From NCBI GenBank assembly GCA_009783305.1, contig WRHJ01000002.1:87097-151096 (forward strand): a stretch of DNA of 64,000 nt, read 5' to 3'. The position numbers and the translations under genes are program-made. Source of the stretch: Candidatus Saccharimonadota bacterium. Lineage in GTDB: Bacteria > Patescibacteriota > Saccharimonadia > Saccharimonadales > Saccharimonadaceae. Of this stretch, positions 30,094 through 63,129 are shown piece after piece. Each line of letters opens with the position of its first letter. Position 1 is the first letter of the stretch. A model generated the notes under the pieces. That model ran no database searches. It was given only the letters and a program-made list of their open reading frames with translations, and was not told the origin of the DNA.

Positions 30094-30732
30094 ATGGAAG
30101 ACAACATTGCTATTATCAAAAATTGGCTCGGCAGCGGCAGCATCAATATTTTTGGCTTGCCCCTATCTGGCAAAGACACTGTTGGCATCAAGCTGGCCGA
30201 AGCTCTTGGCGGCAAATACTTATCTTCCGGCGTCATCCTGCGCGCCGCAGAACCAACCAACCAAGCCGTCCGCGACAATCTTGCCATCGGCCTCTGGGCT
30301 CCAACCGATCAATTCTATGATCTAGTCTTGCCTTATTTTGATCGAGAAGACCTCAACGGCCTACCCCTTACGCTTGGCGCCATTGGCCGCTGGAGCGGGG
30401 AAGAACAAACTATTATAAATTACGCCAAGTCAGCCGGACACGAAATCAAAGCCGCAATTCTCCTCAATATCTCTGAAGCTGATATCCACGCCCGTTGGGA
30501 ACAACTGCACATCTTGCAGGATCGCGGTACCCGCACTGACGACAAAGACGTCAAAGCCCTCAACAACCGCGTCAATGAATTCAAGACCAAAACCATGCCT
30601 GTCATCCAAACTTACCGTGATCTCGGTATCCTTATCCCCGTCAATGCCGATCAAAGCAGAGAGGCTGTTTACACTGAAGTCGTCCAAAAACTCGCCGATT
30701 TCGCCCTCAACACCCCCGTCGAGCAATCTTAA
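30094..30732 (+). CDS. Adenylate kinase-like nucleoside monophosphate kinase with a divergent P-loop
   Basis: GLPLSGKDT (compare GAPGAGKGT), YLSSGVILRAA (compare ISTGDMLRAA), LGAIGRW (compare LDGFPRT). Confidence 0.6.
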   Translation: MEDNIAIIKNWLGSGSINIFGLPLSGKDTVGIKLAEALGGKYLSSGVILRAAEPTNQAVRDNLAIGLWAPTDQFYDLVLPYFDREDLNGLPLTLGAIGRWSGEEQTIINYAKSAGHEIKAAILLNISEADIHARWEQLHILQDRGTRTDDKDVKALNNRVNEFKTKTMPVIQTYRDLGILIPVNADQSREAVYTEVVQKLADFALNTPVEQS

Positions 30733-31694
30733 TCTCGCTTCAACATCACCGTAAACGCTTCGGCTGGAATATCTACCTTCCCGAAACGTTTCATCCTTGC
30801 CTTGCCTTTTTTCTGCTTTGCCAATAATTTCTTCTTACGCGACACATCGCCGCCATACAAATAACCTGTCACATCCTTACGATATGCCCCAATCGTTTCA
30901 CGCGCAATAAATCGCGCCCCGATTGCCGCTTGTAATGCCACCTCAAAATTTTGCCGGGGAATTACTTCTTTTAATTTTTTCGTCACCACGCGTCCCAGCG
31001 CCTCCGCCTCAGAACGGTGCGCCATCACCGACAACGCATCTACTCGTTCTCCAGCCACATAAAAATCTACCCGCACCAAATCCTCCGCCCGATAATCCTG
31101 TAGCTCATAATTAAACGAACCGTAACCAGACGTCGAAGACTTTAATTGATCATAAAAATCCGTCAACAAATTCGCCATCGGCGCCTCAAAATCAATAATT
31201 GCCCGATCATCCATGTAGGACAGACTTTTTTGCCGTCCACGTTTCATAATAATCAAATCCAATACTGCGCCCACATAACTTTTCGGCACAATAATCTCGC
31301 CCTTTACCCACGGTTCGCGAATTTCTTCCACCTTCGTAATATCCGGCAAATCCGAAGCCGACTTGATGTCCAATTCTTCACCTGAACTCAACTTCACATG
31401 ATAATCCGTCGACGGATTTGTCACCACCAAATCTAGATCAAACTCCCGTTCCAACCGCTCGCGAATAATATCTAGATGCAGCAGTCCCAAAAACCCAATC
31501 CTAAGGCCAAAACCCAATACTGGCGAATTCTCCGGCTCAAACCGCAGTGCCGAATCACTCAACGCCAATCGTTCCACCGCCTCTTTCAAATCCGCATACT
31601 GGTCGTTACTCACCGGGAAAAATCCCGCATACACAAACGGCCTCACGTTCTTATACCCCGGCAACGGCTCAACGATTACGCGCGGCTCACTCAT
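30729..31694 (-). CDS. lepA: Elongation factor 4 (LepA), C-terminal fragment (domains III, V, CTD)
   Basis: PLPGYKNVRPFVYAGFFPV...LGFLGLLHLDI...YDQLKSSTSGYGSF...KKLLAKQKKGKARMK. This matches LepA from about residue 280 onward. Confidence 0.85.
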   Translation of the reverse strand: MSEPRVIVEPLPGYKNVRPFVYAGFFPVSNDQYADLKEAVERLALSDSALRFEPENSPVLGFGLRIGFLGLLHLDIIRERLEREFDLDLVVTNPSTDYHVKLSSGEELDIKSASDLPDITKVEEIREPWVKGEIIVPKSYVGAVLDLIIMKRGRQKSLSYMDDRAIIDFEAPMANLLTDFYDQLKSSTSGYGSFNYELQDYRAEDLVRVDFYVAGERVDALSVMAHRSEAEALGRVVTKKLKEVIPRQNFEVALQAAIGARFIARETIGAYRKDVTGYLYGGDVSRKKKLLAKQKKGKARMKRFGKVDIPAEAFTVMLKRD

Positions 31695-31899
31695 TTTTCT
31701 CCTCTTCTGCTTTCTTCTCCTTCTCCATATCCGCCTTTGCCTTCGCCACCAATTCTTGCATCTCTGCTTCCACCACTTCCGGCGGCCTATTCAATTCATC
31801 TGATTTTTTCTTCATCCTATTTCTCACTATGCCCACCACCAGAAAAGCTCCCACTATGATTGCTACCCCCGTTAGCATTGCCGGCATCAACCCATCCAT
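31687..31899 (-). CDS. 70-aa membrane-anchored charged-helix peptide inserted between the lepA halves
   Basis: One TM (LTGVAIIVGAFLVVGIV) plus a Lys/Glu-rich helix. The start overlaps the upstream stop (TAATG). The stop overlaps the downstream start (ATGAGTGA). Confidence 0.5.
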   Translation of the reverse strand: MDGLMPAMLTGVAIIVGAFLVVGIVRNRMKKKSDELNRPPEVVEAEMQELVAKAKADMEKEKKAEEEKNE

Positions 31900-32735
31900 T
31901 ATTTTGCCTCCTTGAGATACTTCGCTAGCGTTACCGTGTCTCCCACCTTTGCCTCCCTTGTAGTTTTTAAGTTTGTCACAATATATCCAATTTCCCCCGT
32001 CAACAGCTCCGGCTTGGCCACCATTTGCGGCGATAATTTTCCCACCTCCAGCGCAATGCCATTGGCGCTCGCCGCCATCATCCGAATAGTTTCATTTTTC
32101 CGCAAACTCCCATCCACCACCCGCACATACAATACTACTCCGCGATAATCGTCGAAATACGAATCAAAAATTAACGCCCGCAGCGGCCCATCCGCCACCC
32201 CGCTAGGTTCTGGCACCCGCTCCACCACTGCATCCAATACTCCCTCCACCCCCTCGCCGGTCTTGGCCGAAACCTTCAAGATATCCTCAGCCTTGCAGCC
32301 CAATAAATTCACAATCTCCGAGCTCACTTTTTCCACGTTCGCCGCCGGCAGATCAATCTTATTGATCACCGGTACAATCACCAAATTCGCTTCTACTGCC
32401 AAGTACACATTGGCCAAAGTCTGCGCCTGAATCCCCTGGCTAGCGTCCACCACCAACACCGCCCCCTCGCAAGCCGCCAAACTCCGCGATACCTCATAGC
32501 TAAAGTCCACATGCCCCGGCGTATCAATCAAATTCAATTCATAACCCTTATAATTCATCTGCACCGGAGTCAATTTGATTGTGATACCCTTTTCGCGCTC
32601 CAATTCCATCGAATCCAGTAGTTGCGACTTCATCTCACGCTTATCCACCGTTCCGGTTATTTCCATCAATCGGTCCGCCAAAGTCGACTTGCCATGGTCA
32701 ATATGCGCAATAATACAAAAATTCCGTATATTCAT
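31899..32735 (-). CDS. lepA: Elongation factor 4 (LepA), N-terminal fragment (GTPase domain + domain II)
   Basis: [31 protein letters not shown]. It ends after GDTVTLAK, at the domain II/III linker. Confidence 0.9.
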
Positions 32736-37269: not shown

Positions 37270-38223
37270 ATGCACGGGTTGGGCATTGATGTTAATCAAA
37301 TCAAAAAACGCATCCGTTTTTGTAACTATCTTTCCGTTGCCCAAATTTATCTCAAAGACAATTTCCTACTCACCCGCCCACTGACAGAATCCGACATCAA
37401 ACCTAGATTGCTCGGCCATTGGGGCACTTGTCATGGCATCAACGTCGCCTACGCCAACCTCAAATCTTGGCACAAAGCCGCCCCCATCAAGCCCAACTTC
37501 CAATTCATCCTCGGTCCCGGACATGGCTTTCCCGCCCTCCAAGCCAACTTGCTCTACGACGACGAACTGGCCGAATATTACCCCGATGCCACCCACAATC
37601 TCCACGGCATCGAATATATTTGTAAAGAATTTTCCTGGCCCTACGGTTTTCCCAGTCATGCCTATCCCGGCACTCCCGGCGTCATCACCGAGGGCGGCGA
37701 GCTCGGCTATGCTCTTGCCGCAGCTTATGGCGCCAGCTTAAATAAACCAGACAATTTCATTGCTGTTCTCATCGGCGACGGCGAACTCGAAACCGCCACC
37801 GCCCTCGCTAGCCTCAACCTTCACAAGCTCATCAATTCGCCCTCCCACGCTCAAATCCTCCCCATCCTCCACCTCAACGGTTACAAAATCTCTGGCCCCA
37901 CCATCTATGGCCGTACCTCCGAGCGCGAATTGCTCAACCTCTTTCGTGGCTTTGGTTACGATCCGGTCATCATCAACGGCGACGACACTGAAGAATTCCA
38001 AATCGCCCTCCAGCAACTCAAACCCAACACCTTCCTTATCATGAAAACCGCCAAAGGCGAAACTGGCCCCAAAGAACTGGATGGTGAAAAAATCGCCGAC
38101 AATTATCTTTCCCACCAAGTCCCGCTGCCAGATGTCAGAACCGACGCTCATCAACTTCTCATGCTCGAAAATTGGTTAAAAAGCTACAACTTCAAGGAGC
38201 TCTATGATGAATTTACCAGATAG
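37270..38223 (+). CDS. xfp: Phosphoketolase, N-terminal (TPP PP-domain) fragment
   Basis: NYLSVAQIYLKDNFLL...KPRLLGHWGTCHG...GELGYAL...GDGELETA. It ends at ...LKSYNFKELYDEFTR*. Confidence 0.85.
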   Translation: MHGLGIDVNQIKKRIRFCNYLSVAQIYLKDNFLLTRPLTESDIKPRLLGHWGTCHGINVAYANLKSWHKAAPIKPNFQFILGPGHGFPALQANLLYDDELAEYYPDATHNLHGIEYICKEFSWPYGFPSHAYPGTPGVITEGGELGYALAAAYGASLNKPDNFIAVLIGDGELETATALASLNLHKLINSPSHAQILPILHLNGYKISGPTIYGRTSERELLNLFRGFGYDPVIINGDDTEEFQIALQQLKPNTFLIMKTAKGETGPKELDGEKIADNYLSHQVPLPDVRTDAHQLLMLENWLKSYNFKELYDEFTR

Positions 38224-39379
38224 AGTTGACCAGCCCGGTGCCGAAAAATATTCTTCCGCTCGCATGTTCGGCGCGCTCCTCCGCGACGAAATGGCCCAAA
38301 ACCCCAACTTTTTCTTTTTCTCACCCGACGAAACCTCTTCCAATAAACTAGATGAGATTTTCGAAGCTTCCGATCGCGCCTGGGCCGAATCTACTAAACC
38401 TTGGGACAAATACCTCCAACGCGATGGCCGTGTTATCGAGCTGCTTTCTGAAAACACTCTTTTCGCCACTCTCGCCGGCCACATCTTTAGCGGTGGCCAA
38501 GGCGCCATGACCAGTTACGAAGGCTTCTTCCCGATTATCAGCAGCCAACTCGATCAACATCTCAAATTCCTCCAACAAAGCAAAGAACTCAAGTGGCGTC
38601 CCAAATATTCTGCCACTAATCTTCTCTCCACTTCCACTTGTTGGCGCCAAGATCATAACGGCTTCACCCATCAAAACCCCACCCTTATCTCATCTCTTCT
38701 CGCCAAACCATCCAATCTCGTCAATTGTCTTTTCCCAGTCGATGACGTTGCCTCCGCCGCCGCTTGGGAATTCATGACCCAAACCAAAGATGTTGTAAAT
38801 CTTACAACATTTAACAAAACCAACGAACCTCGCTGGATCGATATCAATCACGCCCGTTTCCAACTTACCAACGGCGGCTGTTCTGTCTTCCAATTCGCGT
38901 CCGATCCTGAACCTGACATCATCCTCGTCTCAGCCGGCGACATCGTCACCAAAGAGCTGCTCTACGCCCGTGAAATTATCAAGCAAGAACTCCCCGACCT
39001 TCAAACTCGCGTTATCAACATCGCCGCCCTCAGCTACCAAGCCATCGGCACCACTCAACACAAACTCAAACAACAAGATTTTGACGATTACTTCACCACC
39101 GACAAACCCATCATCGCCAACTTCCATGGCTACCCCGAAACCCTTCGCAGCATCCTCGCTCACTACGCCGACGCCAAGCGCCTCGACGTTCACGGCTTCG
39201 AAGAGCAGGGCAGCACCACTACTCCTCTCGACATGCTCACCCGCAACCGCGCCTCCAGGTTCGACCTCGCCATAGCCGTCTTCAATCAAACCAACCACCC
39301 TGAACTTGTCGAAAAGTATCAACAGCAAATCAACGAAAACACCGAATATATCAAGATCTACGGCACCGACAAGTATTGA
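38204..39379 (+). CDS. xfp: Phosphoketolase, middle + C-terminal fragment
   Basis: FFFFSPDETSSNKLDEIFE...WRQDHNGFTHQNP...RVINIAAL. The ATG is preceded by AAGGAG and overlaps the upstream ORF by 20 nt in the +1 frame. Confidence 0.85.
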   Translation: MMNLPDRVDQPGAEKYSSARMFGALLRDEMAQNPNFFFFSPDETSSNKLDEIFEASDRAWAESTKPWDKYLQRDGRVIELLSENTLFATLAGHIFSGGQGAMTSYEGFFPIISSQLDQHLKFLQQSKELKWRPKYSATNLLSTSTCWRQDHNGFTHQNPTLISSLLAKPSNLVNCLFPVDDVASAAAWEFMTQTKDVVNLTTFNKTNEPRWIDINHARFQLTNGGCSVFQFASDPEPDIILVSAGDIVTKELLYAREIIKQELPDLQTRVINIAALSYQAIGTTQHKLKQQDFDDYFTTDKPIIANFHGYPETLRSILAHYADAKRLDVHGFEEQGSTTTPLDMLTRNRASRFDLAIAVFNQTNHPELVEKYQQQINENTEYIKIYGTDKY

Positions 39380-50852: not shown

Positions 50853-50929
50853 CGCGGGGTAGAGCAGCCTGGTAGCTCGTTTGGCTCATAACCAAAAGGT
50901 CGTTGGTTCAAATCCAACCCCCGCAACCA
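50853..50929 (+). tRNA. tRNA-Met (CAT), initiator type
   Basis: Cloverleaf with anticodon loop CTCATAA, C1:A72 mismatch (CGCGGGG / CCCCGCA), T-loop TTCAAAT, encoded CCA. Confidence 0.9.
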
Positions 50930-51849: not shown

Positions 51850-51925
51850 GGGGGCGTAGCTCAGTGGTTAGAGCAGTCGGCTCATAACCGATTGGTCCCT
51901 GGTTCAAGTCCAGGCGCCCCCACCA
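51850..51925 (+). tRNA. tRNA-Met (CAT), elongator type (or tRNA-Ile2 if lysidine-modified)
   Basis: Acceptor GGGGGCG/CGCCCCC fully paired, anticodon loop CTCATAA, T-loop TTCAAGT, encoded CCA. Confidence 0.9.
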
Positions 51926-51944: not shown

Positions 51945-53825
51945 GTGCCACAACCAAATCATCCCAAACAACCCGAAAAAAAGAATCGTGTCGGCAGCGC
52001 CATGCGCATGGCTGCTTTTTGGATTTTAATTGTTATTCTCGGCCTCACCGCTTTAGCCAGTTTTTCCACCCCTGCCGCTGATGCCGCCGAAGAAAAAGAT
52101 CTCACTGAGATTCTCGCTTTTGCCCGGGACGAAAAACTTGAAGAAATTATCGTTCGCGGCAACGAGCTAATCGTCACGCCCCGCGAAGGCACCGACTTGC
52201 CCCGCATGATTTCCATGAAAGACCCCTCCAGTTCGCTCAATGAACAAGGATTTGCCAGTATCATCGAAGACGGCCAAGTCCGCATCCGTATCGAAGAGCC
52301 CAGCAGCATTTGGGATAACGTTTTTGACATTGCACTCATCTTAGTACCGACTATTCTCATTATCGGTTTCTTTGTCTACATGATGCGCCAAGCCCAGTCC
52401 ATGAACAACCAGTCGATGGGCTTCGGCAAGTCCAAAGCCCGCCTCTACGGCAATGATAAGAAAAAAATCACTTTCAAAGATGTTGCCGGCAACGAAGCCG
52501 CCAAACAAGATCTCACCGAAATTGTTGATTTCCTCAAAAAACCCAAGAAGTACGAAGCGCTTGGTGCTAAAATCCCGCGCGGCGTGCTGCTCGCTGGTGA
52601 TCCCGGTACCGGCAAGACCCTCATGGCTCGCGCCGTGGCCGGCGAAGCTGGCGTCCCGTTCTTTAGCATCTCCGGTTCTGAATTTGCCGAAATGTTCGTC
52701 GGTGTTGGTGCCTCTCGCGTCCGAGACCTCTTCAATAAAGCCAAGAAAAACTCACCATCTATCATCTTCATCGATGAAATCGACGCCGTCGCCCACAAAC
52801 GCGATGCACGCGGCGGGTCGGGCAGGGAAGACGAACAGACTCTCAATCAGATACTGGTCGAAATGGATGGTTTCGACAACGAAACCGGCGTTATCGTCAT
52901 GGCTGCTACCAACCGCGTTGACATGCTCGATAAAGCTCTGTTGCGTCCCGGCCGCTTCGATCGCCACGTCAATGTTGTTTTGCCTGAACGCAAAGACCGC
53001 CTCGAAATTCTTCAGCTCCACTTCAAAGGCAAGCCCGTCGACGAAAATGTCGACCTCAAAGCTCTCGCCGCCAAAACTGCCGGCAGTTCCGGCGCCGACC
53101 TGGCCAATATCGCCAACGAAGCCGCCATTACCGCCGCCCGCGAAGGCCACAAAACCATTAGCAACGCTGATCTGACCGAAGCTTTCGAACGCGTCGCCAT
53201 TGGCCCCGAGCGCAAAAGTAAAGTCATGACCGATGAAGAACGCAAAATCACCGCCTATCACGAAGCCGGTCACGCCGTCGTCGGCCACGTTTTGCCTGAT
53301 TCTGATCCCGTTCACAAAGTCACCATCATCCCTCGCGGTCACACCGGCGGCGTCACCTGGTTCCTCCCCGAAGAGGACCGCAGTTACAAAAATATCTATG
53401 AACTCAAAGATGTCCTCGCTCGTGCTATGGGCGGCCGCATGGCCGAAAAAATCATCTTTGGCGACGACGGCATTACCACCGGCGCCAGCTCTGACCTCAA
53501 GCATGTCAGCCAACTAGCTCGCGAAATGGTTACCGAGGAAGGCATGGGCGGCCGAACCCGCAACCAAGTCTTTAACACCTCCGAGGTCAATTTCTTTGGC
53601 GACCGTGCCAAAGCCTATTCTGAAAAGACTTCCGAGGTTATCGATACCGAAATCGAAACCTTGACCCGCGAATCCACCAAACGCGCCGAACTGGTCCTCA
53701 AGGTCAACCAAAAATACCTTGACGAGCTCGCCGCCGCCTTGCTCGAAAAAGAAACTCTAGAAGAAAAAGAAGTCCGCGATATCCTCAAAGGCACTACCCT
53801 CCCACCCACCGCGAAATTACATTAA
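51945..53825 (+). CDS. ftsH: ATP-dependent zinc metalloprotease FtsH
   Basis: GTG start behind AGGAGG. Two [24 protein letters not shown]. Confidence 0.97.
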
Positions 53826-53861
53826 CGTTTACTTTTTGACATTTTCTGATATAATTGTGTT

Positions 53862-53998
53862 GCTGAAGCGGCGTTAGATCGCCGCCGCCATATAAACGGC
53901 GTGAAAGCTCATGGGTGATCTCCGGAGCCATGAGATGGTAGCATGGTTGGTGCAAGTCCAACCCAGCAAAAAAGACGGTCAGAAATGACCGTCTTTAA
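53862..53998 (+). ncRNA. Candidate ~135-nt structured RNA of unknown family
   Basis: A -10 TATAAT (53850-53855) lies upstream. Closing helix UUGCUG/CAGCAA. Three internal hairpins: GCGGCG/CGCCGC, CUCAUGG/CCAUGAG, GGUUGG/CCAACC. An intrinsic terminator follows. Confidence 0.3.
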
Positions 53999-54002
53999 TT
54001 TT
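53968..54002. terminator. Bidirectional intrinsic terminator
   Basis: AAAAAA-GACGGTCA-gaaa-TGACCGTC-TTTAATTTT. Confidence 0.7.
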
Positions 54003-54015
54003 GGACAGGTTATAG

Positions 54016-54599
54016 TTATGTCCTGTGGTCAGGAGGTGGCACATGGCGATCCTTATGTCCTTTTGGCAAACTCTCATTTGTCCAATGGAAATTTCGGTCT
54101 CCGCGTTCATCGGCATCCCAAGAAACCCTGTAGCCATCGGCATATTTCATAGTCAAATGATAAGGGCCAACATATTTCCTATCCCAGAAGGTCTTGGCAG
54201 GGATTTCCATTGGCGAGTGATTACTACGGAATCTACCATAAAGCGTCGCTCTTTCTTCTCGCTGGCGTTCGAACCCTTCCTTACAGTTTTTGCAATACTT
54301 AGGCGGATGCGACCAGTCGGAATTAACCCGAATCGTGTTGCTGCAAGTCGCCGATGCGCAAGGCACGTCGCTCCATTTCGCTCGCTCTTGTAAGCGTCCC
54401 AGTCGTTCTGCTGACGCTCAAAAGCTCTGTTCATTTCTAAGCGGGCTGCCTGGACTTTATCCCAACTTGCGTCCATTTCCGCCCTCAGTTCGCTGCGCAA
54501 ATCCCCCAATGGCTTCATCCGGTCATATGCAGCTTGCTTGTCGGCAAAAGCCTGGTCCGATCTTTCCTTCAGACGATCAATTTCTGGATTGCGTGGCAT
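54016..54599 (-). pseudogene. Frameshifted gene: coiled-coil N-terminus + zinc-ribbon/unknown C-terminus
   Basis: ORF 54599->54153 is protein-like only for about 75 aa. ORF 54366->54016 (-1 frame) carries CSNTIRVNSDWSHPPKYCKNCKE and a normal-looking domain. The two frames overlap between 54366 and 54417. Confidence 0.45.
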
Positions 54600-54744
54600 A
54601 ATTACACACTCCCTTTTCAAAGAACAAATTTACCTCCGGAGTCACCCAAGAGCGTATTAACCGCAGAATAGCATAAATTTGTTATTATAGCAAGAATATT
54701 GACGCGCATGAAAAAGGGCGTTGCAATGGCAACGCCCTTAGTTG

Positions 54745-55428
54745 TTAGTCACGGACAACTTCCACATTCTTTCCGTCATATTTGATACTGTAGTTACCAG
54801 CAGCATCAACCTCAATGATAGCCCTTTCAACCCCATGAGGTCGTCCGAATCCTCTCATTGGGTCTTCAATCGACTGATCAGCCAGTCTGGGTATGGCATA
54901 CAATACGAAATCCATCAGATAATCATACATGTACACATTAACCCCAGTAAAATAGATTCTTTTCGCCTGGCTGTCATTTATTCGGGTATCAGTCGCGTTG
55001 AACATCGTCGCGACAAGAGCAACATAGTCATTATGGTTTGCAGAAATACGATATCCCGAACCCAACATAATGCTTCTTGCCCAGGTTGTCTTGCCGCCGG
55101 CACTTCCACTACAGGACAAACGAATTACCGGATCTCCTAAATCGGGTTCAGTAACTTGGAACTTATCGATACCGTGCGCCGCACAGTATCCAATCATGTC
55201 AAATTCTGAATCGCTTATCCAGTAGTTTTCAGGGTCAATGCCTGGATTAACTGAAGGAGTCGACGTTGGATCGCTCACTGGATCGTTAGATTCTGTCGGC
55301 TTTTCAGGCTCTGACGGGCTCATCGTCCCACTGGTATTTCCACTCGTTATATCCGGATTACTCTTTGAGCACCCAGCTAAGGTGGCTACCAGCAACGCAG
55401 CTAACATCAATAAGACTAACTTTTTCAT
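54745..55428 (-). CDS. Lipoprotein, function unknown
   Basis: MKKLVLLMLAALLVATLAGC lipobox, then a Ser/Thr/Pro linker. Start set at 55428 behind GAGAGGGGAG. Confidence 0.7.
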   Translation of the reverse strand: MKKLVLLMLAALLVATLAGCSKSNPDITSGNTSGTMSPSEPEKPTESNDPVSDPTSTPSVNPGIDPENYWISDSEFDMIGYCAAHGIDKFQVTEPDLGDPVIRLSCSGSAGGKTTWARSIMLGSGYRISANHNDYVALVATMFNATDTRINDSQAKRIYFTGVNVYMYDYLMDFVLYAIPRLADQSIEDPMRGFGRPHGVERAIIEVDAAGNYSIKYDGKNVEVVRD

Positions 55429-55502
55429 TTTAAGGTACTCCCCTCTCTTAGATTTGTTGAAGTAGCCACCAAGGCACTTCCATACCCTCATTATAGCATA
55501 CC

Positions 55503-55531
55503 TTGCAGAAAAAGTCAATATCCAATATAAT
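55503..55531 (+). promoter_or_regulatory. Promoter of the three-gene island operon (near-leaderless)
   Basis: TTGCAG, 17 nt spacer, TATAAT. The ATG at 55542 lies 10 nt after the -10, with no SD. Confidence 0.55.
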
Positions 55532-55541
55532 AATAAGCGGA

Positions 55542-58500
55542 ATGGCAGAGTATGAAACCGACGGCAGTAGCGCCCTAGCTCCCAATGATCCCTATAATGA
55601 GATGGATCGTTCGGATATTCGCCCTAATCTTGGGATTATTGAAGGTGGCGGCAAAGGTGATGGCAAACCCAGAGGCAACTTAAGAGCACTCGCTCAAAAT
55701 GGATTATCAGACGCCGAACGATCAGCCGCAAATCCCATATCCACCATCGCCGGCGGAGCCGATAAAGCACAATCTGCCGAACAAAACCAATCTCTCAGTC
55801 CACGTTTTACCGGTAAGGGCTTGCCAGGTCAAAAGGACAACAAAAAAGATGGTAAGAAAAAAGGCTTTTTCAAAGGCAAGGGGCCGCTTATTGCCATTAT
55901 GACTCTATTAATCGGCGGCGGCGGCATCATGGCCGGAACCCAATCTCTTATGCCCTTTAGTTTAATCGCCCAATTTCAAGAAACTTTTGATTCCATCAAA
56001 ACCGTCTCCGAACTGCGTTCGAATGTATTCTTCGAGCATCAATTGAATCCAGATCTAGTCAAAGATCCAATTCGCGCCACCATGTTTGGCAAACTCAAGT
56101 TCAAAATCACTCACCGGCAGGAAACTAAACTTTTCAAACAGGGCATAGAGGTTGAAAGGAATTTTAGATACGTTGACGGAAATGGCAATAACAAATCCAT
56201 CACAGCGCTGACATTTGATGACGGTTCAGGTCTCCCCCCAATGATTATTGTCCCAGACGCCAAGATGCAAGTCGATGTTGATAATTTCATCCTGAGCGGC
56301 GGATTAACAGATGTTGATGGTTCTGTCATTATGCCGCCAGTCCATTCATTCAATGGAGCATTCGACGAAATACCCGATTTCCGCAATGGTTACATCAAAG
56401 GATCACGCACTTGGCGCGGAGCTGTCGGAGCCTGGTTTGGTAGAATGACAGTCAGATTCTTGCAAAGTAACCGATTAACACGTGATAGGTTTAAAAATTT
56501 TCAAGCTCGTGTGATGGCTGAAGAAGCCGGTAATACTAGGAGTGCCGCCATAGCCTTGATGCGTGACGATGTTAATAATCAATCCGAAGGAGTTGGCGTT
56601 CGCAATACTGACGCCGGCGAACAAACTACTACTGTAGAAAACAGTGATGGAACCACTTCTACTGAAGTAACTCCTGTGGCCGCAGCAGTACCTCCAGATG
56701 CTGGTCCCACCGGCTTCAAAGCCAAGCTAGACGCCGCTATTTACAAAGGCAATAAGGCGCAAATCGAAGCTTATCTCACCGATTTTGGCAACGGCATGGC
56801 TAAACAAGTCAGCGGCGCCGCCAACGCCGTAGTTAATGTTGCCTGTACAGTGTTTAATTTTATCGGTGCAGTAAATCTTATGTTAGTTGCACACGAAGCG
56901 CTCCAAATTATGCAGCTGATCACAGGATACTTTGAGGCCATCCAGAAAGTCCAAGCCGGTGACGGGGCCGATTCGCCGCTCAATGATTTGTCCAATGGTC
57001 TAACTACACCGGCAAATTCCACCTATGAAACCGACGATGGCGGCAGCGTTACGCTCACTGGATCTGCCATGGCCAGCAGCGGCATTACTTCTATTTATGG
57101 CAATAAACCAGTCAACAAACATGACCCAAGCGTCGACAGTTTTAATATTGGCACTAGACTGCAAACCATATTAGGTTTGCTTGGCACCAGCGTTACTAGC
57201 TTCTTGGGATGCGCCATCGCCAAGGCTGCCGCTAGCCTGGTTGATCTTGTGCTAGATGTTGTAGAAATTGTTACCTGCGTAGGAACATTTGGCATTGGCT
57301 GCGTAGTCTCAGCTATAAAAATGGCTATGACCTCCGTCGCTAGCAGTATTGCCATTTCTACTGCCATTTCCATAGCCGTGCCAATTCTCGCCCAGGTACT
57401 CTTCAAAGCCTTCTCCCGCGACATCATATCTACCTTAGCCGGAGAAGATCTAGGCAACGCCATTACCTCCGGGGCCAATATGTATATGGGGACAAATCAT
57501 AGAATGGGCGGAGGTGCACCAACCAATCAGGATGGACTATTGCAATTTATTGCCGCCCAACAACAGGTAATTGCCAATGAAGCGCGTTATCAGCGCGAAA
57601 CCAAAAGCCCCTTTGATGTTTCATCCAAATATACATTTATGGGTAGCCTAGTTACTTCCATCATGTCATTTACCACTCAGGCCACATCCTTCACGGGCAT
57701 AATGGCTGGGATCGGCAATATTGTTGGCAGTTCTATCTCCACAATTTTGCCAAGCGCTTCTGCTCTCCATGCCGTTAAAATGGTTACTTCTTTTGGCGAT
57801 TGCCCCGATCTCGAATCCATCGGTGCCGTCGGCGACGCATTTTGCAACCCATATATCGTTTCCGATATTAGTACTATAACGGGACTCGATTGGGACCCGG
57901 GCAGAGTAGTCGATAAAGTTGACGACCTCAACGGCTTGGTCAAAGTTGAAGGTGAAGTTCCGCAAGTCGCAAAAGGTTCCAACTTAGCAAAATATATTAT
58001 ATTTTGCGGTCAACGCGGCTCGCCATTCGGTGTTGCTGACCAAAATATCGCCAACGACATCTCATCAGACTCATGGACCACAGTAAGTACCGACGTCGCC
58101 CTTGTCAATACTTCAGCCAACACCACAATTGGTGCCATCCCAGTCTTAGGAGATTTTCTCGACATCGCTAGACAGTATGATCAAATTTCTAATTACGGAT
58201 GGGTATCCGGCGAATCCTGCGTGCAAGGAGGTACCACAAATCCAATTGCTGTCGCATCACCTAGCTGGGACGAAACTAGAAATTACCAACGCTTCGTCGA
58301 AGATCAAGTTTTATCTGAAACTATTGGTCTTGTTGAGAAATCCGCTGTCACGGCCTTCCTCGATGATTACTATGCGGAACACCCCCTAGACCAATCATAC
58401 GAAGGCATCCTAGCCCGCAAAACTGGCTTGACCAAAGAGACAGTCATCGCAACTTTCGAACAATTAGAATATTTCAACTTCATAGCTAACTATGATCCAA

Positions 58501-58652
58501 CCGAGCTTTATCCAATGCCAAACTATCTAGCTCATTACGTCTTTAGTCTAGCCGACCAATTACCAGCTATCATTATTGCCGATCATTACACCAATCCTAT
58601 ACCGTATTTCGTCATATACGCTGACACACGTACAAGGAGTTATGCTGTATGA
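55542..58652 (+). CDS. Large polytopic membrane protein (~1,036 aa), VirB6/ConG-like by architecture
   Basis: Disordered Gly/Lys-rich N-terminus, at least 5 TM segments spread along the protein, and large soluble loops. ATGA overlap with the hydrolase gene. Confidence 0.7.
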   Translation: MAEYETDGSSALAPNDPYNEMDRSDIRPNLGIIEGGGKGDGKPRGNLRALAQNGLSDAERSAANPISTIAGGADKAQSAEQNQSLSPRFTGKGLPGQKDNKKDGKKKGFFKGKGPLIAIMTLLIGGGGIMAGTQSLMPFSLIAQFQETFDSIKTVSELRSNVFFEHQLNPDLVKDPIRATMFGKLKFKITHRQETKLFKQGIEVERNFRYVDGNGNNKSITALTFDDGSGLPPMIIVPDAKMQVDVDNFILSGGLTDVDGSVIMPPVHSFNGAFDEIPDFRNGYIKGSRTWRGAVGAWFGRMTVRFLQSNRLTRDRFKNFQARVMAEEAGNTRSAAIALMRDDVNNQSEGVGVRNTDAGEQTTTVENSDGTTSTEVTPVAAAVPPDAGPTGFKAKLDAAIYKGNKAQIEAYLTDFGNGMAKQVSGAANAVVNVACTVFNFIGAVNLMLVAHEALQIMQLITGYFEAIQKVQAGDGADSPLNDLSNGLTTPANSTYETDDGGSVTLTGSAMASSGITSIYGNKPVNKHDPSVDSFNIGTRLQTILGLLGTSVTSFLGCAIAKAAASLVDLVLDVVEIVTCVGTFGIGCVVSAIKMAMTSVASSIAISTAISIAVPILAQVLFKAFSRDIISTLAGEDLGNAITSGANMYMGTNHRMGGGAPTNQDGLLQFIAAQQQVIANEARYQRETKSPFDVSSKYTFMGSLVTSIMSFTTQATSFTGIMAGIGNIVGSSISTILPSASALHAVKMVTSFGDCPDLESIGAVGDAFCNPYIVSDISTITGLDWDPGRVVDKVDDLNGLVKVEGEVPQVAKGSNLAKYIIFCGQRGSPFGVADQNIANDISSDSWTTVSTDVALVNTSANTTIGAIPVLGDFLDIARQYDQISNYGWVSGESCVQGGTTNPIAVASPSWDETRNYQRFVEDQVLSETIGLVEKSAVTAFLDDYYAEHPLDQSYEGILARKTGLTKETVIATFEQLEYFNFIANYDPTELYPMPNYLAHYVFSLADQLPAIIIADHYTNPIPYFVIYADTRTRSYAV

Positions 58653-60712
58653 TAAAGCATTCCAAATTTGATCGTTTTCTAAGAGGATTCTGTATTGTCG
58701 CAGCCGCCGCCATCATGGCCGGCCCTGCAGCAGCACTTACAGAATCGCAACTCGATATGTTTGCTGAAAACAACATCATGTTCTATGATCCAAGTCAAAG
58801 CAATACTTTTTGCGGTGCAGCTTCTTCCGATTGCAATATTATGGGCGACACAAAAGACGAGAAACTCTGGTCTGGTCTTCGCCACGTCGGGTTCACTCCG
58901 GAACAAACCGCCGCCATCATGGGCAACATGGCTCACGAAGGAGGCAGCCCCACCATACAAGAAGGCGTTTACAATTCTGCTCGCGACAGTAACTGCTTAA
59001 CTCAAGAAGGCCAACCCTATACAATCTGGACAGATAGCACCAATGGTCTCCATCATGGCGCCTGCATGCAAGCCATTTATAGTTATTACAGTGCAGGTAA
59101 AGGAGTTGCCGGTATTGGACTCGGATTTGTCCAATGGACATCTCATAATCGACGTTTAGGATATCTAGAAGAAATACGCAAACTAAATCTTCTCAAATAT
59201 TTTGAAGATGATGCCTATAAAACCTACGGACGCTACAACGACGAACAACTCCATGAAAAAATTATGCAAGAAACTGGCTCAGACTCAGATTACTGGGCGC
59301 TTTGGTGTGCCGCAATACATTTTGTGCGCACCGAAATGGACGGCGATTACTCGGAATTTTATACCAAAACAACCGTTGCAGAACTGGCTGGTTGGGTTTC
59401 CGCTCGTTACGAAGTATGCGGTTCATGCTCTCCCGGAGATTCCGGCTACAACAGCCGTATTGTTTCCGCTGAACAATATTTTGCCGACTACAAAGCCGGT
59501 AAATTCGACGCTATCGAATCCGGCGAAGCCAAGCCCGTCACATCAATTGGCAAAGAAGACGGATCCAACGTTACTATCATTGGCGACTCTATAACTAACG
59601 GTTATTATACGCGAAACGCCATCACTAAACTTTTACCCAAAGCCGACATCCACGCCCAAGATTCCAAATCCTTTGCCAACGGCTCTGACGCTAACCCATC
59701 AGGAGTTACCATTGCGCAAGAATTACAAAATACCAACACGCTTCGCAATATTGTTATCTTTGCTCTCGGGACTAACGATAAAGGCGGTATAGCAGACGGC
59801 GTGATCCAGAACCTCGTTGACAGTATCATAGGGCCAAGCCATATTATTTACTTCCTTACCAACTATGATGCCCAAAATCCCAGTATTTACGATAATAATA
59901 ATGCCCAATTTACTTCCGCCGCTGCTACGTACGGCAACGTCAGACTTATAGACTGGCGCACTATAGTTGAACAGGCGAAAGCTAGTAACCCAGAGACCAC
60001 TTATATTCTAGATGAGCAACCCTTATATTCGGTACACCCCACAATAGCCGGTAGCGAACTGTTCGCTCAAGCCATCTATGATAGTATAACCGGTGTAGGT
60101 AGACCATCTAATTGTGACAATATTAACAATCCCAACATGGCTATTTCTTACCTTCAGCAATTTATTGTCGATACCAACCGTCTTTATAATCGTAATTACG
60201 CCATACCTCGTACTGCAGCAATTGGGATGAATACTAATACGCCAGGGAGTGACGAGGAGGTTGTTGCGGATGCTATCATACAGCAACAATGGATCGATAG
60301 AGGACTCATCACGGCCTCAGACGAGCTAGGTGGCTGTTGGCGTGCCACCTTCTGCGGCCAATGTACTGCCCTTTCTGGCTGGTTTGTCACAATGATGACT
60401 GGCTATCTTTATGGCTCCGGCAACGGCGCCGAAGTCGTCGCCAACATGCTAATTGCAAATGCTGGACTACTAACAGCTTCCAATACCCCAGTTCCATTTA
60501 GCGTCTTCTCCGAAGATGGCAGTTCTGCTGCTGGCCATACTGGTATAGTCCTCGGTGTACTCAGCGACGGCACATATCTCACCATGGAAAATAATCAGGG
60601 CAACCATGACCTAAAAATTAAAAAGCGGGACAATTTCGCCGAAAAAAATGCCACATTCCTTAATCTGTCTTCAAAGCTAAAACTTGATCATCTAGGAACC
60701 ACCTATGAATAA
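58649..60712 (+). CDS. Secreted three-domain cell-wall hydrolase: lysozyme-like + SGNH/GDSL esterase + CHAP/NlpC-P60-like peptidase
   Basis: Signal anchor. GFTPEQTAAIMGNMAHEGG...GLGFVQWTSHNR (phage-tail-lysozyme-type). VTIIGDSITNGY...FALGTND...SVHPT (SGNH). CGQCTALSGWF...GHTGIVLGV...MENN (Cys-His). Confidence 0.8.
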   Translation: MIKHSKFDRFLRGFCIVAAAAIMAGPAAALTESQLDMFAENNIMFYDPSQSNTFCGAASSDCNIMGDTKDEKLWSGLRHVGFTPEQTAAIMGNMAHEGGSPTIQEGVYNSARDSNCLTQEGQPYTIWTDSTNGLHHGACMQAIYSYYSAGKGVAGIGLGFVQWTSHNRRLGYLEEIRKLNLLKYFEDDAYKTYGRYNDEQLHEKIMQETGSDSDYWALWCAAIHFVRTEMDGDYSEFYTKTTVAELAGWVSARYEVCGSCSPGDSGYNSRIVSAEQYFADYKAGKFDAIESGEAKPVTSIGKEDGSNVTIIGDSITNGYYTRNAITKLLPKADIHAQDSKSFANGSDANPSGVTIAQELQNTNTLRNIVIFALGTNDKGGIADGVIQNLVDSIIGPSHIIYFLTNYDAQNPSIYDNNNAQFTSAAATYGNVRLIDWRTIVEQAKASNPETTYILDEQPLYSVHPTIAGSELFAQAIYDSITGVGRPSNCDNINNPNMAISYLQQFIVDTNRLYNRNYAIPRTAAIGMNTNTPGSDEEVVADAIIQQQWIDRGLITASDELGGCWRATFCGQCTALSGWFVTMMTGYLYGSGNGAEVVANMLIANAGLLTASNTPVPFSVFSEDGSSAAGHTGIVLGVLSDGTYLTMENNQGNHDLKIKKRDNFAEKNATFLNLSSKLKLDHLGTTYE

Positions 60713-61469
60713 CGACAATCAATTCAAAATAAGAAAAAGGGCCCTAATCATTGTTGCCATTATCTTCTTGGCCGTCTGCGCCTTTGCTATCTGGTATTAC
60801 CTATTTACTATGCACAACAACATGATAGTTATCACAAACATTGATTCTTGCGCCGAACGACTCCCGGCCTCTCAACGAGACACTGTGTTCCGGCAGCTCT
60901 ACCCGTTTATACGAGAACAAAACAGTGTCAATGGCATAGATTCTCAGCCCACATATCATGCAGTTATTCGTGACAACACTTGCAGAACTAAAGATTACGA
61001 GCGCGATGGCTTGAGAAGCTCCAATGCCAGATTCATCCTAGATATCGAAGAACTTAATCAATCATATCGCGTTAGTTTCAATTGGATTAAAACTGGAGAT
61101 CCACAATCACCCGAAATTGATCTTGGCTCTACTAACGTCAACTGTCTTTTGGAAGAATATTTGATCTACGGCGACTTCAATTGCGATCAGAACCCCCTTA
61201 TTCAAGCATCCAATAGCGGCAGGGAACCTATTTTGTCACTCATCCCGTATTTTGGAGATGGCTTCTCGCTATCCCCAACATTATCTGCCACCAGTAAAAG
61301 CGGATACAGCATTATCCTTACTTTTGACCCGCCACAAATCATTTACCTCGAAGGACCCCTCGAGCCATTTCTCGAAAGCCGCAGGACTATGATGAGGCAA
61401 TTCCTCCAAGATAATGACATTAACATTGACGAGTATGGTATTATTGAAAACTTCAGAATAACTCGCTGA
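60705..61469 (+). CDS. Membrane-anchored hypothetical protein (254 aa)
   Basis: N-terminal TM (ALIIVAIIFLAVCAFAIWYYLF). 8-nt overlap with the hydrolase gene. Confidence 0.6.
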   Translation: MNNDNQFKIRKRALIIVAIIFLAVCAFAIWYYLFTMHNNMIVITNIDSCAERLPASQRDTVFRQLYPFIREQNSVNGIDSQPTYHAVIRDNTCRTKDYERDGLRSSNARFILDIEELNQSYRVSFNWIKTGDPQSPEIDLGSTNVNCLLEEYLIYGDFNCDQNPLIQASNSGREPILSLIPYFGDGFSLSPTLSATSKSGYSIILTFDPPQIIYLEGPLEPFLESRRTMMRQFLQDNDINIDEYGIIENFRITR

Positions 61470-61494: not shown

Positions 61495-63129
61495 ATGAAG
61501 CGTCCCAGATTTCACTTTAAATCCGTCGTGGCCCTGGCTAATGCCAAACTGCCCATCAAGTCTGCCGCTATTTTGCTCGCCAGCTCAACGCTCATCTCCG
61601 CGCTCCTCGGCATCTTCCGCGACCGCTGGCTCAACTCGCTTTATCTCGACACTTATCCTGCTGGCATTGATGCTTACACTGCCGCCTTCACCATCCCCGA
61701 CTTCATGTTTTTCATCCTCGTTTCCGGTGCTCTTGCCGTCACCTTCATACCCGTCTTCAACCAACGTCTCGCTACTGGCAACAAAAAATCAGCTTGGGAG
61801 CTTAGTTCCAGCATCCTGAACGTCATGGCGCTTTTCTGCCTAGTTGGCAGCATCCTCATCATGATTTTTGCCGATCCTCTCATCCGCTTCATTGTTGCTC
61901 CCGGTCTCGACGAAGCTCCCATGGCTCTTGCCATCAACATGATGCGCGTCATCGCCATCAACCCGTTCCTCTTTTCTATTGCCACTGTTCTCGCATCCAT
62001 CCAGCAGGCCGTCGGTCGTTTTGTTTTCTTCGCCCTTGCCCCCGCCCTCTACAACGTCGGCATCCTCATCGGTATTCTAGTTTTCACTGGCGGTATCAAC
62101 ATTTTTGGCCTGCAAATTTTTGAAGGCGGCATCATGGGCGTCGCCCTCGGCGTTGTACTCGGCGCCGTCTTCCAAGTCATTACTTCGCTAATTGGATTAT
62201 TCGGCCTCGGATTCGACTACGAATTCAAAATTTATTGGAAAAACCTGGGTTTCCGCGCCGTCTTAAAATTACTTCCCGCACGTTCCCTTGATCAAGGCAT
62301 CGATTACGTCAACAGTATCGTCAACACCAACCTCGCTTCGCGCATGGCCTCCGGCGCCGTTCGCTCCTATCAGCAGGGCTTAAGTTTGCACTCTATGCCA
62401 GTTAACCTCGTTGGCGTCGCCATCTCCACCGCCTTCTTTCCCAAACTTACCGAAGAAGTCGGGCAGGGCAAAGAAGAGGATTTCCGTCAAACTTTCCGCA
62501 CGGCCCTTCGCACCATCGTTTGGATGGCCATGCCTATTGCCGTCATCACGTTTTTCGCGCGCGGCTATATCGTCAACTTTATCAAAAATGGTGGCGACCC
62601 ACTAATTGCTGCTGTCCTCGGCGCCCTCGTTGTCTCCATTTTCTGCCGCTCTGTCTTTCATCTAGCCACGCGTGGTTTTTACGCCCATCAAAATACCAAG
62701 ATTCCTCTCATCATTTCCATCATCGCCATCGGACTCAATATTGGATTTGCCGTCTTCTTCACTATTTCCGGTTTCGGTCCCGAAGGTCTGGCCTATGCCC
62801 AATCCATCGGCGCCGCCATTGAAGTCACCATTTTACTCATCGTACAGCACATCCAAATGCGCGGTAAGTTGCTAAATCGCGAATTTTGGCGAAGCTTTTC
62901 CAAAACTATCTTCGCCTCTGGCATCGCCGGCGCCATCGCTTATTCCATGACCAAATTCTTCCCCCTTCTCGCCACTGACAATAGCTTCTTCGATACCTTC
63001 CCGAAATTCATGCTCATCGTTTGCACCAGCATCCTCTCCTATCTCATCGCTGGCTATTTCCTCGGCCTCGACGAAGTCAAAGTTGTTACCAGTAAACTCA
63101 AAAAAATCATCTTTCGCAACGTAGCTTAA
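61495..63129 (+). CDS. murJ: Lipid II flippase MurJ (MviN family)
   Basis: 14-TM MOP-type protein. N-terminus LISALLGIFRDRWLNSLY...IDAYTAAFTIPDFMF. Confidence 0.88.
   Translation: MKRPRFHFKSVVALANAKLPIKSAAILLASSTLISALLGIFRDRWLNSLYLDTYPAGIDAYTAAFTIPDFMFFILVSGALAVTFIPVFNQRLATGNKKSAWELSSSILNVMALFCLVGSILIMIFADPLIRFIVAPGLDEAPMALAINMMRVIAINPFLFSIATVLASIQQAVGRFVFFALAPALYNVGILIGILVFTGGINIFGLQIFEGGIMGVALGVVLGAVFQVITSLIGLFGLGFDYEFKIYWKNLGFRAVLKLLPARSLDQGIDYVNSIVNTNLASRMASGAVRSYQQGLSLHSMPVNLVGVAISTAFFPKLTEEVGQGKEEDFRQTFRTALRTIVWMAMPIAVITFFARGYIVNFIKNGGDPLIAAVLGALVVSIFCRSVFHLATRGFYAHQNTKIPLIISIIAIGLNIGFAVFFTISGFGPEGLAYAQSIGAAIEVTILLIVQHIQMRGKLLNREFWRSFSKTIFASGIAGAIAYSMTKFFPLLATDNSFFDTFPKFMLIVCTSILSYLIAGYFLGLDEVKVVTSKLKKIIFRNVA

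Follow-up and report, generated by a model that had tools for sequence, protein, structure and literature searches.

Results

The gene trio between ftsH and murJ

We analyzed a stretch of 64,000 nucleotides (the window) on contig WRHJ01000002.1 of the Candidatus Saccharimonadota bacterium assembly GCA_009783305.1. Between ftsH and murJ, the window contains three consecutive genes encoding a membrane protein of about 1,000 amino acids (aa) (hereafter the large protein), a multi-domain cell wall hydrolase, and a small membrane protein. A lipoprotein gene lies upstream on the opposite strand. Sequence comparison suggested that the trio and the lipoprotein gene are the cell-wall/envelope sub-module of a chromosomal, relaxase-less, Gram-positive-type (mating-pair formation type FATA, MPF-FATA-like) type IV secretion system (T4SS) of Saccharibacteria. 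The genes of this system would be scattered, with the sub-module relocated to the site between ftsH and murJ. We give this reading a probability of about 0.7. We infer that the proteins physically associate with the T4SS, how they sit in the membrane, which reactions the hydrolase catalyzes, and which wall it acts on.

The window was compared with 59 related loci of GTDB species representatives, and genomes were scanned for the family of the large protein with a 17-sequence alignment. Individual loci are cited by their L numbers. The trio was homologous, in the same order, to the three genes after virB4 in canonical Saccharibacteria T4SS clusters (L074 and L066). The L074 cluster, which lies beside recF-dnaN-dnaA, encodes PrgI, a TraC-like protein, VirB4, a 967-aa homologue of the large protein (P0069, with a VanY domain), a Phage_lysozyme2 hydrolase, and a 256-aa protein. 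P0069 was the most distant match of the large protein in the word-index search. L065 and L066 were the second distant pair, and the L066 cluster encodes a TrbL_3-like protein, PrgI, a 277-aa protein, VirB4, a 963-aa homologue (with M23), a PEGA-like protein, a lysozyme/peptidase, and a 170-aa protein. The large protein matched its virB4-adjacent counterparts with E-values of 2e-27 in L074 (phmmer) and 3e-14 in L066 (BLASTP). The hydrolase was homologous to the lysozyme genes of the same virB4 clusters (8e-16 in L074 and 7e-12 in L066). Homologues of the third protein follow the hydrolase gene in L029 (1e-99), L004 (2e-14), and the virB4 cluster of L074 (1e-18). Because each protein matched its positional counterpart in the canonical clusters, the trio appears to be the gene-for-gene counterpart of the T4SS part distal to VirB4. 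The large gene of the window is not next to virB4, whereas its distant homologues in L065, L066, and L074 are. In nine distinct loci (L004, L008, L020, L030, L041, L045, L046, L065, and L066), the large gene also has a TrbL_3 gene as a direct or close neighbour.

The gene arrangement of L074 and L066 is that of the genes SEML1_0010 to SEML1_0004 of Southlakia epibionticum ML1, which belongs to the same class of organisms. In ML1, SEML1_0004 to SEML1_0008 were scored 'ES' (essential) for epibiotic growth at T1 and T2 by transposon sequencing (Tn-seq) (PMC10633639). SEML1_0007 has 1,113 aa and an M15B/DD-peptidase-like C-terminus, SEML1_0006 is composed of lysozyme, lysozyme, and Cys protease domains, SEML1_0005 belongs to the PEGA type, and SEML1_0004 is another small protein (PMC10633639). 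Peptidase and lysozyme homologues have been described directly downstream of virB4 in the relaxase-less T4SS, which is related to monoderm conjugation machinery (PMC12102498). The window and ML1 both encode, in the same order, a membrane protein of ~1,000–1,100 aa, a multi-domain hydrolase with Phage_lysozyme2, and small exported or anchored proteins. Homology of the window proteins to the ML1 layout was shown via the equivalent clusters L074 and L066, not via the ML1 sequences themselves.

The two loci also differ. The ML1 genes are located directly downstream of virB4 and next to dnaA, and those of the window between ftsH and murJ, with no T4SS gene called within ~84 kb. SEML1_0007 has a peptidase-like C-terminus, whereas that of the window protein is unrelated and ~200 aa long. 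The hydrolase SEML1_0006 combines two lysozyme-like domains with a Cys protease, and that of the window lysozyme, SGNH, and CHAP domains. The third gene is of the PEGA type in ML1 and of the '256-aa type', as in L074, in the window. A preliminary description of the region had derived the trio from Gram-positive-type conjugation machinery, possibly repurposed as an envelope-breaching device of an epibiont. The collinearity and homology of all three proteins with the genes after virB4 support this origin, and the repurposed device matches the literature proposal for the relaxase-less T4SS (PMC10633639, PMC12102498).

The large protein

The large protein was 100% identical to FWF89_02070 (MCL1839766.1) of a Candidatus Saccharibacteria metagenome-assembled genome (MAG), and the identical protein was encoded on seven contigs in several assemblies. 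The hydropathy scan indicated five hydrophobic segments at residues 114–132, 431–449, 542–560, 574–592, and 603–621. The protein is laid out as a Lys/Gly-rich N-terminal tail, a first transmembrane (TM) segment, a ~290-aa ectodomain, a bundle of four TM helices, and a ~410-aa C-terminal region containing conserved cysteines. The Lys-rich tail before the first TM segment suggests an N-in orientation; with five TM segments, both large domains would then lie outside the membrane. The conserved cysteines fit this placement, as do the peptidase domains of relatives, which are extracytoplasmic. The 'extended VirB6' class is described as having at least five TM helices plus large hydrophilic domains (PMC12857230). 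With five hydrophobic segments and two large hydrophilic regions, the large protein resembles this class in topology only, which does not imply homology.

The large protein had been taken for a VirB6-like or ConG-like protein, which was not borne out. Pfam and NCBIfam scans gave no TrbL/VirB6 match and assigned no family. A Pfam scan of 32 family members (the window's protein and 31 relatives) matched no TrbL/VirB6 model and returned only sub-threshold noise, e.g., DUF4112. The profile comparison with the VirB6/TrbL families that had been suggested for this protein was run against an 18-sequence TrbL_3 alignment with hhalign and gave a probability of 2.9%, and BLASTP of the large protein with the TrbL_3 protein of L004 gave E = 0.77. 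No match was found in a profile search of PDB sequences or in a tblastn search of 72,556 plasmids. The AlphaFold 2 (AF2) model, built from a 32-sequence alignment, had a mean predicted local distance difference test score (pLDDT) of 61 and a predicted template modeling score (pTM) of 0.63, with the TM region below 50. With this low-confidence model, the best Foldseek match in the PDB had E = 0.3 and a TM-score <0.1, and the transporter-like matches were non-significant. An identity of the large protein as VirB6, TrbL, ConG, or TcpH was thus not supported; the MAG has a separate TrbL_3 protein. Because the TrbL_3 proteins form a separate family, the large protein is predicted to be an additional T4SS component and not the VirB6 equivalent. 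Its resemblance to ConG appears to be positional and topological only, since VirB6/TrbL homology was not detected and genuine VirB6-like proteins exist alongside.

The word-index search returned 69 homologues, all of ~1,000 aa, and at least 1,820 representative clusters (50% identity) matched the family profile at E ≤ 1e-3. In the L074 and L066 proteins, coverage by the profile stops at about residue 833 (window numbering). Residues 834–1036 of the window's protein, its unrelated C-terminus, replace the VanY or M23 peptidase domain of the relatives. Because the window's protein keeps the membrane core and has lost the peptidase domain, the comparison suggests that the conserved part of the family is the membrane and ectodomain core, not the peptidase. 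Large genes also occur as tandem pairs or as two to three dispersed paralogues per genome (L009, L014, and L059; L027, L044, and L047 of CAVFJY; L045 and L046 of JBJFFO). VirB6 is likewise duplicated in Rickettsiales.

The hydrolase

The hydrolase matched the Pfam families Phage_lysozyme2 (residues ~71–279; 39.5 bits, cut-off 28.2) and CHAP (residues ~570–649; 34.1 bits, cut-off 26). A GDSL/SGNH-like domain (residues ~311–470) remained below the threshold (25.6 bits, cut-off 32.9), and the weak SGNH match was seen in all four orthologues, the window's included. Hydropathy indicated an N-terminal hydrophobic signal or anchor. The orthologues in L029, L034, and L053 share this architecture, their C-terminal peptidase being CHAP or NlpC/P60. 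Residue E97, the GDS motif with S314, a GTN motif, C569/C572, and H630 were conserved across the four orthologues. The motifs GN..HE, VTIIGDSIT, and FALGT, the Cys motif, and the His of HTGIV were invariant; the exception was the SGNH His, which is Arg in L053. A phmmer search of the hydrolase against the PDB gave noise only. The protein joins a glycosidase and a peptidase domain in one putatively exported chain, as is characteristic of VirB1-like proteins. Its homologues are linked to T4SS genes in L066, L074, and ML1. The window's copy is unlinked, with TrbL_3 encoded elsewhere in the MAG.

The only plasmid match of the hydrolase (L067) covered the SGNH-like residues 303–488 (26% identity, E = 7e-5); the lysozyme and CHAP parts had no significant plasmid matches. 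The matching segment is flanked by the M23 and NlpC/P60 domains of a hydrolase of 715 aa on Corynebacterium striatum plasmid NZ_CP069515.1. The gene of this hydrolase is located directly after a VirB4-like ATPase gene. The plasmid is of the MOBF type and comes from an actinobacterium, the phylum to which the hosts of Saccharibacteria belong.

The small membrane protein and the lipoprotein

The third protein has one N-terminal TM helix (residues 13–31, hydropathy) and an extracytoplasmic domain, and the alignment showed a conserved cysteine pair (C147 and C160). It had no Pfam family, and its single-sequence AF2 model was unusable (pLDDT 40). The third genes of L034 (15079–15993) and L053 (11696–12613) encode ~305-aa PEGA-domain proteins like SEML1_0005. 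These proteins, present in two of the four loci of the ftsH–murJ type (the window's counted), are not homologous to the 254-aa protein of the window; alternative families thus occupy the third position in the module.

The lipoprotein starts with MKKLVLLMLAALLVATLAGC (signal peptide) and has the lipobox LAGC, a Ser/Thr/Pro-rich linker, and a ~150-aa domain without a family match. Only signal-peptide-level matches were obtained against NCBIfam. Besides the window, 15 of the 59 related loci (L020, L025, L029, L033–L036, L042, L044–L047, L051, L053, and L055) have a lipoprotein gene directly beside the large gene and on the opposite strand. The accompanying lipoproteins are ~200–270 aa long in mature form and have a Ser/Thr/Pro/Glu-rich linker. 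The position of the gene flips: some loci have it upstream of the large gene, others in the interval that separates the large and hydrolase genes. The lipoproteins fell into groups of ten and three members and three singletons, and hhalign between the groups detected no mutual homology.

Gene organization and regulatory signals

The features of the region are listed in Table 1. The open reading frame (ORF) map agreed with the preliminary description on the three genes, the divergent lipoprotein gene, and the ftsH and murJ flanks, and both of the coupled junctions it had reported were present. The large-protein and hydrolase genes overlap by 4 nt (ATGA, 58649–58652), with AAGGAG 9 nt upstream. 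The hydrolase gene and the third gene overlap by 8 nt (ATGAATAA, 60705–60712).

Table 1 Features of the region between ftsH and murJ, in window coordinates
Feature	Position	Strand	Description	Basis
ftsH	51945–53825		Left neighbour of the region	ORF map
Two overlapping small ORFs	Within 54016–54620	−	64 and 148 aa as called; the 148-aa product coiled-coil-like	
GC-rich hairpin	54714–54739		11-bp stem AAGGGCGTTGCAATGGCAACGCCCTT, just 3' of the lipoprotein gene	Terminator scan
Lipoprotein gene	54745–55428	−	227 aa, divergent	ORF and lipobox
Overlapping divergent promoter-like elements	55490–55531	Both		Sequence read and consensus scan
Large-protein gene	55542–58652	+	1,036 aa, polytopic	
Hydrolase gene	58649–60712	+	687 aa, secreted or anchored	
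Third gene	60705–61469	+	254 aa, bitopic membrane protein	
murJ	61495–63129		Right neighbour of the trio	ORF map

The promoter proposed for the operon, TTGCAG-17-TATAAT, was found on the plus strand at 55503–55531, facing the operon, but its −35 hexamer had only three of six matches and a stronger site lay on the opposite strand. That site, TTGACT-17-(TG)TATAAT (minus strand, 55518 to 55490), had 11 of 12 matches, was the strongest promoter-like site of the region, and faces the lipoprotein gene. The ATG of the operon is located 10 nt past the −10 hexamer of TTGCAG-17-TATAAT; the operon mRNA would therefore be nearly leaderless. The promoter scan gave 18 sites, compared with 14.1 ± 3.8 in shuffled sequences, and the plus-strand site was below the scan threshold. 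Given these numbers, the divergent elements are consensus matches only. The terminator scan gave 10 sites, compared with 7.9 ± 2.9 in shuffled sequences, and the hairpin next to the lipoprotein gene had the longest stem. This hairpin is likely a terminator and the left edge of the module.

The longer of the two small ORFs between ftsH and the hairpin had no homologue in any related locus and none in Pfam. The segment carrying them, which separates ftsH from the lipoprotein gene, has an ordinary GC content (0.50) and seems to be an insert specific to this lineage. Upstream of ftsH, two tRNA-Met genes (50853–50929 and 51850–51925) bracket a DivIC-like gene pair.

Conservation and base composition of the locus

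The order ftsH, (lipoprotein gene), large gene, hydrolase gene, third gene, murJ, followed by a nucleoside triphosphate (NTP)-transferase gene, gatB, and gatA, was common to L029, L034, and L053 (3 of the 59 loci). In these loci, FtsH was 80–82% and MurJ 78–79% identical to the proteins of the window. The identities of the large protein, the hydrolase, and the third protein were 39–42%, 31–61%, and 20–53%, respectively. Since synteny was kept while the neighbours remained ~80% identical and the trio diverged to 20–61%, the arrangement appears to be old, vertically inherited, and faster-evolving than its neighbours, not recently acquired. This context in three other species, together with the low GC at third codon positions (GC3) that recurs in one of them, spoke against the proposal of a recently acquired island.

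Divergence from L029 was discordant within the trio: identity reached 61% for the hydrolase and 53% for the small protein, but only 42% for the large protein. Compared with L034 and L053, the hydrolase was only 31–32% identical. Such discordance may reflect module swapping by recombination or unequal rates.

The GC content was 46.1% in the region, 49.5% in the rest of the window, 53% in ftsH, and 51% in murJ. The region was the lowest-GC 7.6-kb stretch of the window. Lines of 60 nt with at most 45% GC made up 46% of the region and 28% of the sequence elsewhere (Mann–Whitney p = 4e-7). The reported GC drop is thus real, but it is small, and the contrast of 30–45% against 50–60% was an overstatement. 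In line with the reported change in codon choice, GC3 was 0.43–0.47 in the four genes of the region and 0.546 ± 0.064 in other genes. In the relatives, the GC3 dip recurred in L053, was weak in L029 and absent in L034, and was reversed in L004. Because it recurs in the L053 orthologues and varies across the other three loci, gene-specific codon usage fits the low GC3 better than foreign origin does. Recent horizontal transfer was rejected as the cause of the low GC, given the old synteny and the behaviour of GC3 in L053 and L004.

No VirB4-type ATPase, coupling protein, relaxase, or integrase was called from 10 kb before the window to ~10 kb beyond it (~84 kb). Their reported absence around the trio was thus confirmed over this range. 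Only short chance repeats were found in place of att-like direct repeats flanking the region, and no tRNA gene adjoins it, the nearest lying upstream of ftsH. The alternative that the region is a decayed remnant of an integrative and conjugative element (ICE) was not supported: the ORFs were intact, the catalytic motifs were conserved, and the Southlakia genes in the same positions are essential. The module does not appear to be decayed, because seven contigs encode the same large protein, catalytic motifs are retained, and the family profile matches at least 1,820 clusters.

T4SS genes elsewhere in the genome

In the L029 and L053 genomes, a TrbL_3 gene is located on the same contig as the trio, within a second conserved sub-module. 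This sub-module (L071 5331–13717; L068; L069) consists of four genes without a clear family match (one CLIPPER hit) and the TrbL_3 gene, followed by folD and murB on the opposite strand. The four genes encode proteins of ~203–233, 376–491, 417–421 (weak CLIPPER), and 270–307 aa. The gene directly before TrbL_3 occupies the position of the NTF2-like (VirB8-like?) SEML1_0012.

A 60-kb contig recovered from the samples that also yielded the window (JGI 3300002505, SRR5248970) carries this second sub-module as well, with the TrbL_3 protein P0258. P0258 was identified by a protein search and an accession look-up; a metagenome scan for TrbL_3 gave one unrelated contig. It corresponds to MCL1839989.1, annotated as 'type IV secretion system protein' (Pfam PF19590), 223 accessions after MCL1839766.1. 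The tetranucleotide correlation between the P0258 contig and the window was 0.937, within the same-genome range of 0.89–0.96; other genomes reached at most 0.86. Because the accession series is shared, we infer that P0258 and the large protein come from one MAG. With the P0258 sub-module in the genome of the window, the T4SS genes of this gut/rumen lineage appear to be dispersed over at least two loci. The earlier statement that the sub-module stands alone is therefore true of the locus but not of the genome, where TrbL_3 is encoded elsewhere. Neither the ~84 kb surrounding the trio nor the sequence up to 10 kb from the VirB6-like gene contained a virB4. The T4SS has been described in the literature as maintained across Saccharibacteria.

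Other features of the window

Two tandem giant genes on the plus strand (9767–17014 and 17116–24216) code for products of 2,415 and 2,366 aa, probably surface adhesins, which matched the Pfam families TIG and ALK_LTK_GRD (glycine-rich). Upstream of this pair, the opposite strand has several small genes without annotation. The lepA gene (~30729–32735, minus strand) was called as three pieces of 321, 70, and 255 aa, and the phosphoketolase gene (37270–39379, plus strand) as two ORFs, XFP_N and then XFP plus XFP_C. The split calls were also seen in independent assemblies and may be frameshifts, pseudogenes, or assembly errors. Past the downstream end of the window (L076 1–3033), there are a gene with helix-turn-helix (HTH) and SocA_Panacea domains and a type I restriction HsdR gene.

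Discussion

A possible working mechanism can be drawn from the domain composition. VirB4, together with PrgI/VirB3 and the TrbL_3 VirB6-like channel protein, encoded elsewhere, would power and build the translocon. The large protein would insert with its N-terminus inside, so that both large domains would face the wall and could serve as a scaffold for the apparatus. The co-translated hydrolase would be exported, and its putative lysozyme-type glycosidase and CHAP peptidase would open peptidoglycan locally; a probable SGNH esterase would perhaps remove O-acetyl groups. Through this opening, the T4SS channel and pilus would be able to traverse the epibiont's own wall and possibly extend to that of the actinobacterial host. 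The bitopic third protein and the lipoprotein would act as accessory envelope partners.

ICEBs1 (ConE-ConG-CwlT-YddI-YddJ) and Tn916 (Orf16-15-14-13) encode a VirB4 protein, a large membrane protein, a bifunctional hydrolase, and a small membrane protein. The canonical Saccharibacteria clusters follow the same positional logic with a lipoprotein nearby, and in both cases a wall hydrolase is needed for the monoderm wall. However, no sequence or profile homology was detected between the large protein and the VirB6/TrbL families, nor a significant fold match for its low-confidence model. CwlT combines a muramidase with NlpC/P60, whereas the window's hydrolase combines Phage_lysozyme2 and CHAP with SGNH. 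Unlike these elements, the window locus has no relaxase, coupling protein, or integrase and appears to be chromosomal and vertically inherited. The VirB1-like hydrolases TraG (pIP501), PrgK (pCF10), and TrsG (pGO1) of Gram-positive conjugative plasmids also join a glycosidase to CHAP, have an N-terminal anchor, and are encoded in T4SS operons (PMC12102498). Their glycosidase is of the SLT type, whereas that of the window is of the phage tail lysozyme type and is accompanied by an inserted SGNH-like domain.

The TrbL_3/VirB6-like proteins (PF19590, some PF04610; SEML1_0011, SEML1_0013, TM7x_00055, TM7x_00060, and P0258) resemble the large protein in size (~1,000–1,200 aa), in being polytopic, and, on the preferred reading, in belonging to the same T4SS. 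Their genes are often neighbours of the large gene, and both groups fit the 'extended VirB6' description (PMC12857230). They nevertheless form a family separate from that of the large protein. T4SS genes that do not serve conjugation are also dispersed over several chromosomal loci in Rickettsia. That system is a diderm MPF-T system with unrelated proteins, so the comparison concerns genome organization only.

Several observations weigh against assigning the trio to the T4SS. Most related loci have the large gene on its own, surrounded by housekeeping or surface-protein genes, namely 24 loci of class A, where it lies between metG/MIP and pheST-ftsEX-CHAP, and those of classes C and D. Elsewhere, it was found among lectin, cutinase-VWA, P-type ATPase, or nrdD genes. 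Some genomes have two to three paralogues or tandem pairs. The C-terminal peptidase domain of the virB4-linked relatives is missing in the window's large protein. The VirB4, PrgI, and pilin genes of this genome were not seen, though the whole MAG was not searched. Not all members of the family need act with the T4SS, and the copy in the window could be paralogous to another one that is linked to virB4.

These points lead to the suggestion that the module descends from a T4SS but now works independently, remodeling the epibiont's own peptidoglycan in growth, budding, or division. Its place between the envelope/division genes ftsH and murJ would suit such a role. So would the class A loci, in which pheS and pheT separate the large gene from ftsE-ftsX and a CHAP coiled-coil gene, so that it lies three genes upstream of these, and so would the detachment of a family with paralogues from virB4 in most loci. 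We consider this unlikely, given the collinear homology of the trio with the virB4-operon genes of L066 and L074 and the Southlakia layout, and given that the large gene repeatedly neighbours TrbL_3. The module also evolves much faster than the flanking core genes, which is unusual for core growth functions and more typical of interface proteins. The same rapid evolution could instead point to a T4SS-independent lytic weapon, directed at the wall of the actinobacterial host to obtain nutrients, with the lipoprotein as a self-protection factor. The hydrolase, Sec-exported on this view, has a signal peptide and three putative wall-active domains, one of them a possible O-acetyl esterase, and its middle region resembles part of the Corynebacterium plasmid hydrolase; the lipoprotein is fast-evolving as well, and its family varies between lineages. 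Translational coupling of the hydrolase to the 1,036-aa membrane protein and a bitopic protein, however, argues for a membrane-bound complex and not for a free toxin, and homologues are encoded inside T4SS operons. A lytic weapon thus seems less probable still.

Least credible is a decayed ICE remnant or a recently acquired genomic island, which we regard as very improbable. GC and GC3 below those of the flanks, and T4SS-type genes with no ATPase, relaxase, or integrase nearby, would be expected of either. Against this, the same context is found in three other species whose trio has diverged to 20–61% identity, the low GC3 recurs in L053, and the large protein had no match in the searched plasmids. 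The locus also has no integrase, adjacent tRNA gene, or att repeat, and its ORFs and catalytic motifs are preserved. The reading as a relocated T4SS sub-module accordingly remains the one we prefer.

The system itself is already known, having been described in 2023–2025; the present locus is a variant in arrangement and domain composition. Among T4SSs, that of Saccharibacteria was the first to be reported as essential to the survival of its own bacterium (PMC12857230). The survey of PMC12102498 looked only within 20 genes of virB4. Surveys limited to the vicinity of virB4 miss detached components and may undercount them, because the wall-breaching and VirB6-like sub-modules lie apart in the gut/rumen Saccharibacteria clade. 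As the membrane and ectodomain core seems to be what the family conserves, the essential part of the virB4-adjacent 'peptidase' is probably not the peptidase.

A rather unlikely extension is that the SEML1_0007-like family is an unrecognized non-VirB6 core membrane component of the Patescibacteria T4SS. It would carry a swappable C-terminal wall-active module (VanY, M23, or a new domain) and be accompanied by a fast-evolving lipoprotein gene on the opposite strand. If so, paralogue expansion, rapid divergence, and uncoupling from virB4 would mark it as a determinant of the epibiont's host contact or host range, with which the lipoprotein would pair as cognate partner or protector. Because they diverge rapidly beside ~80% identical neighbours, the trio and the lipoprotein are candidate specificity factors at the interface with the host.

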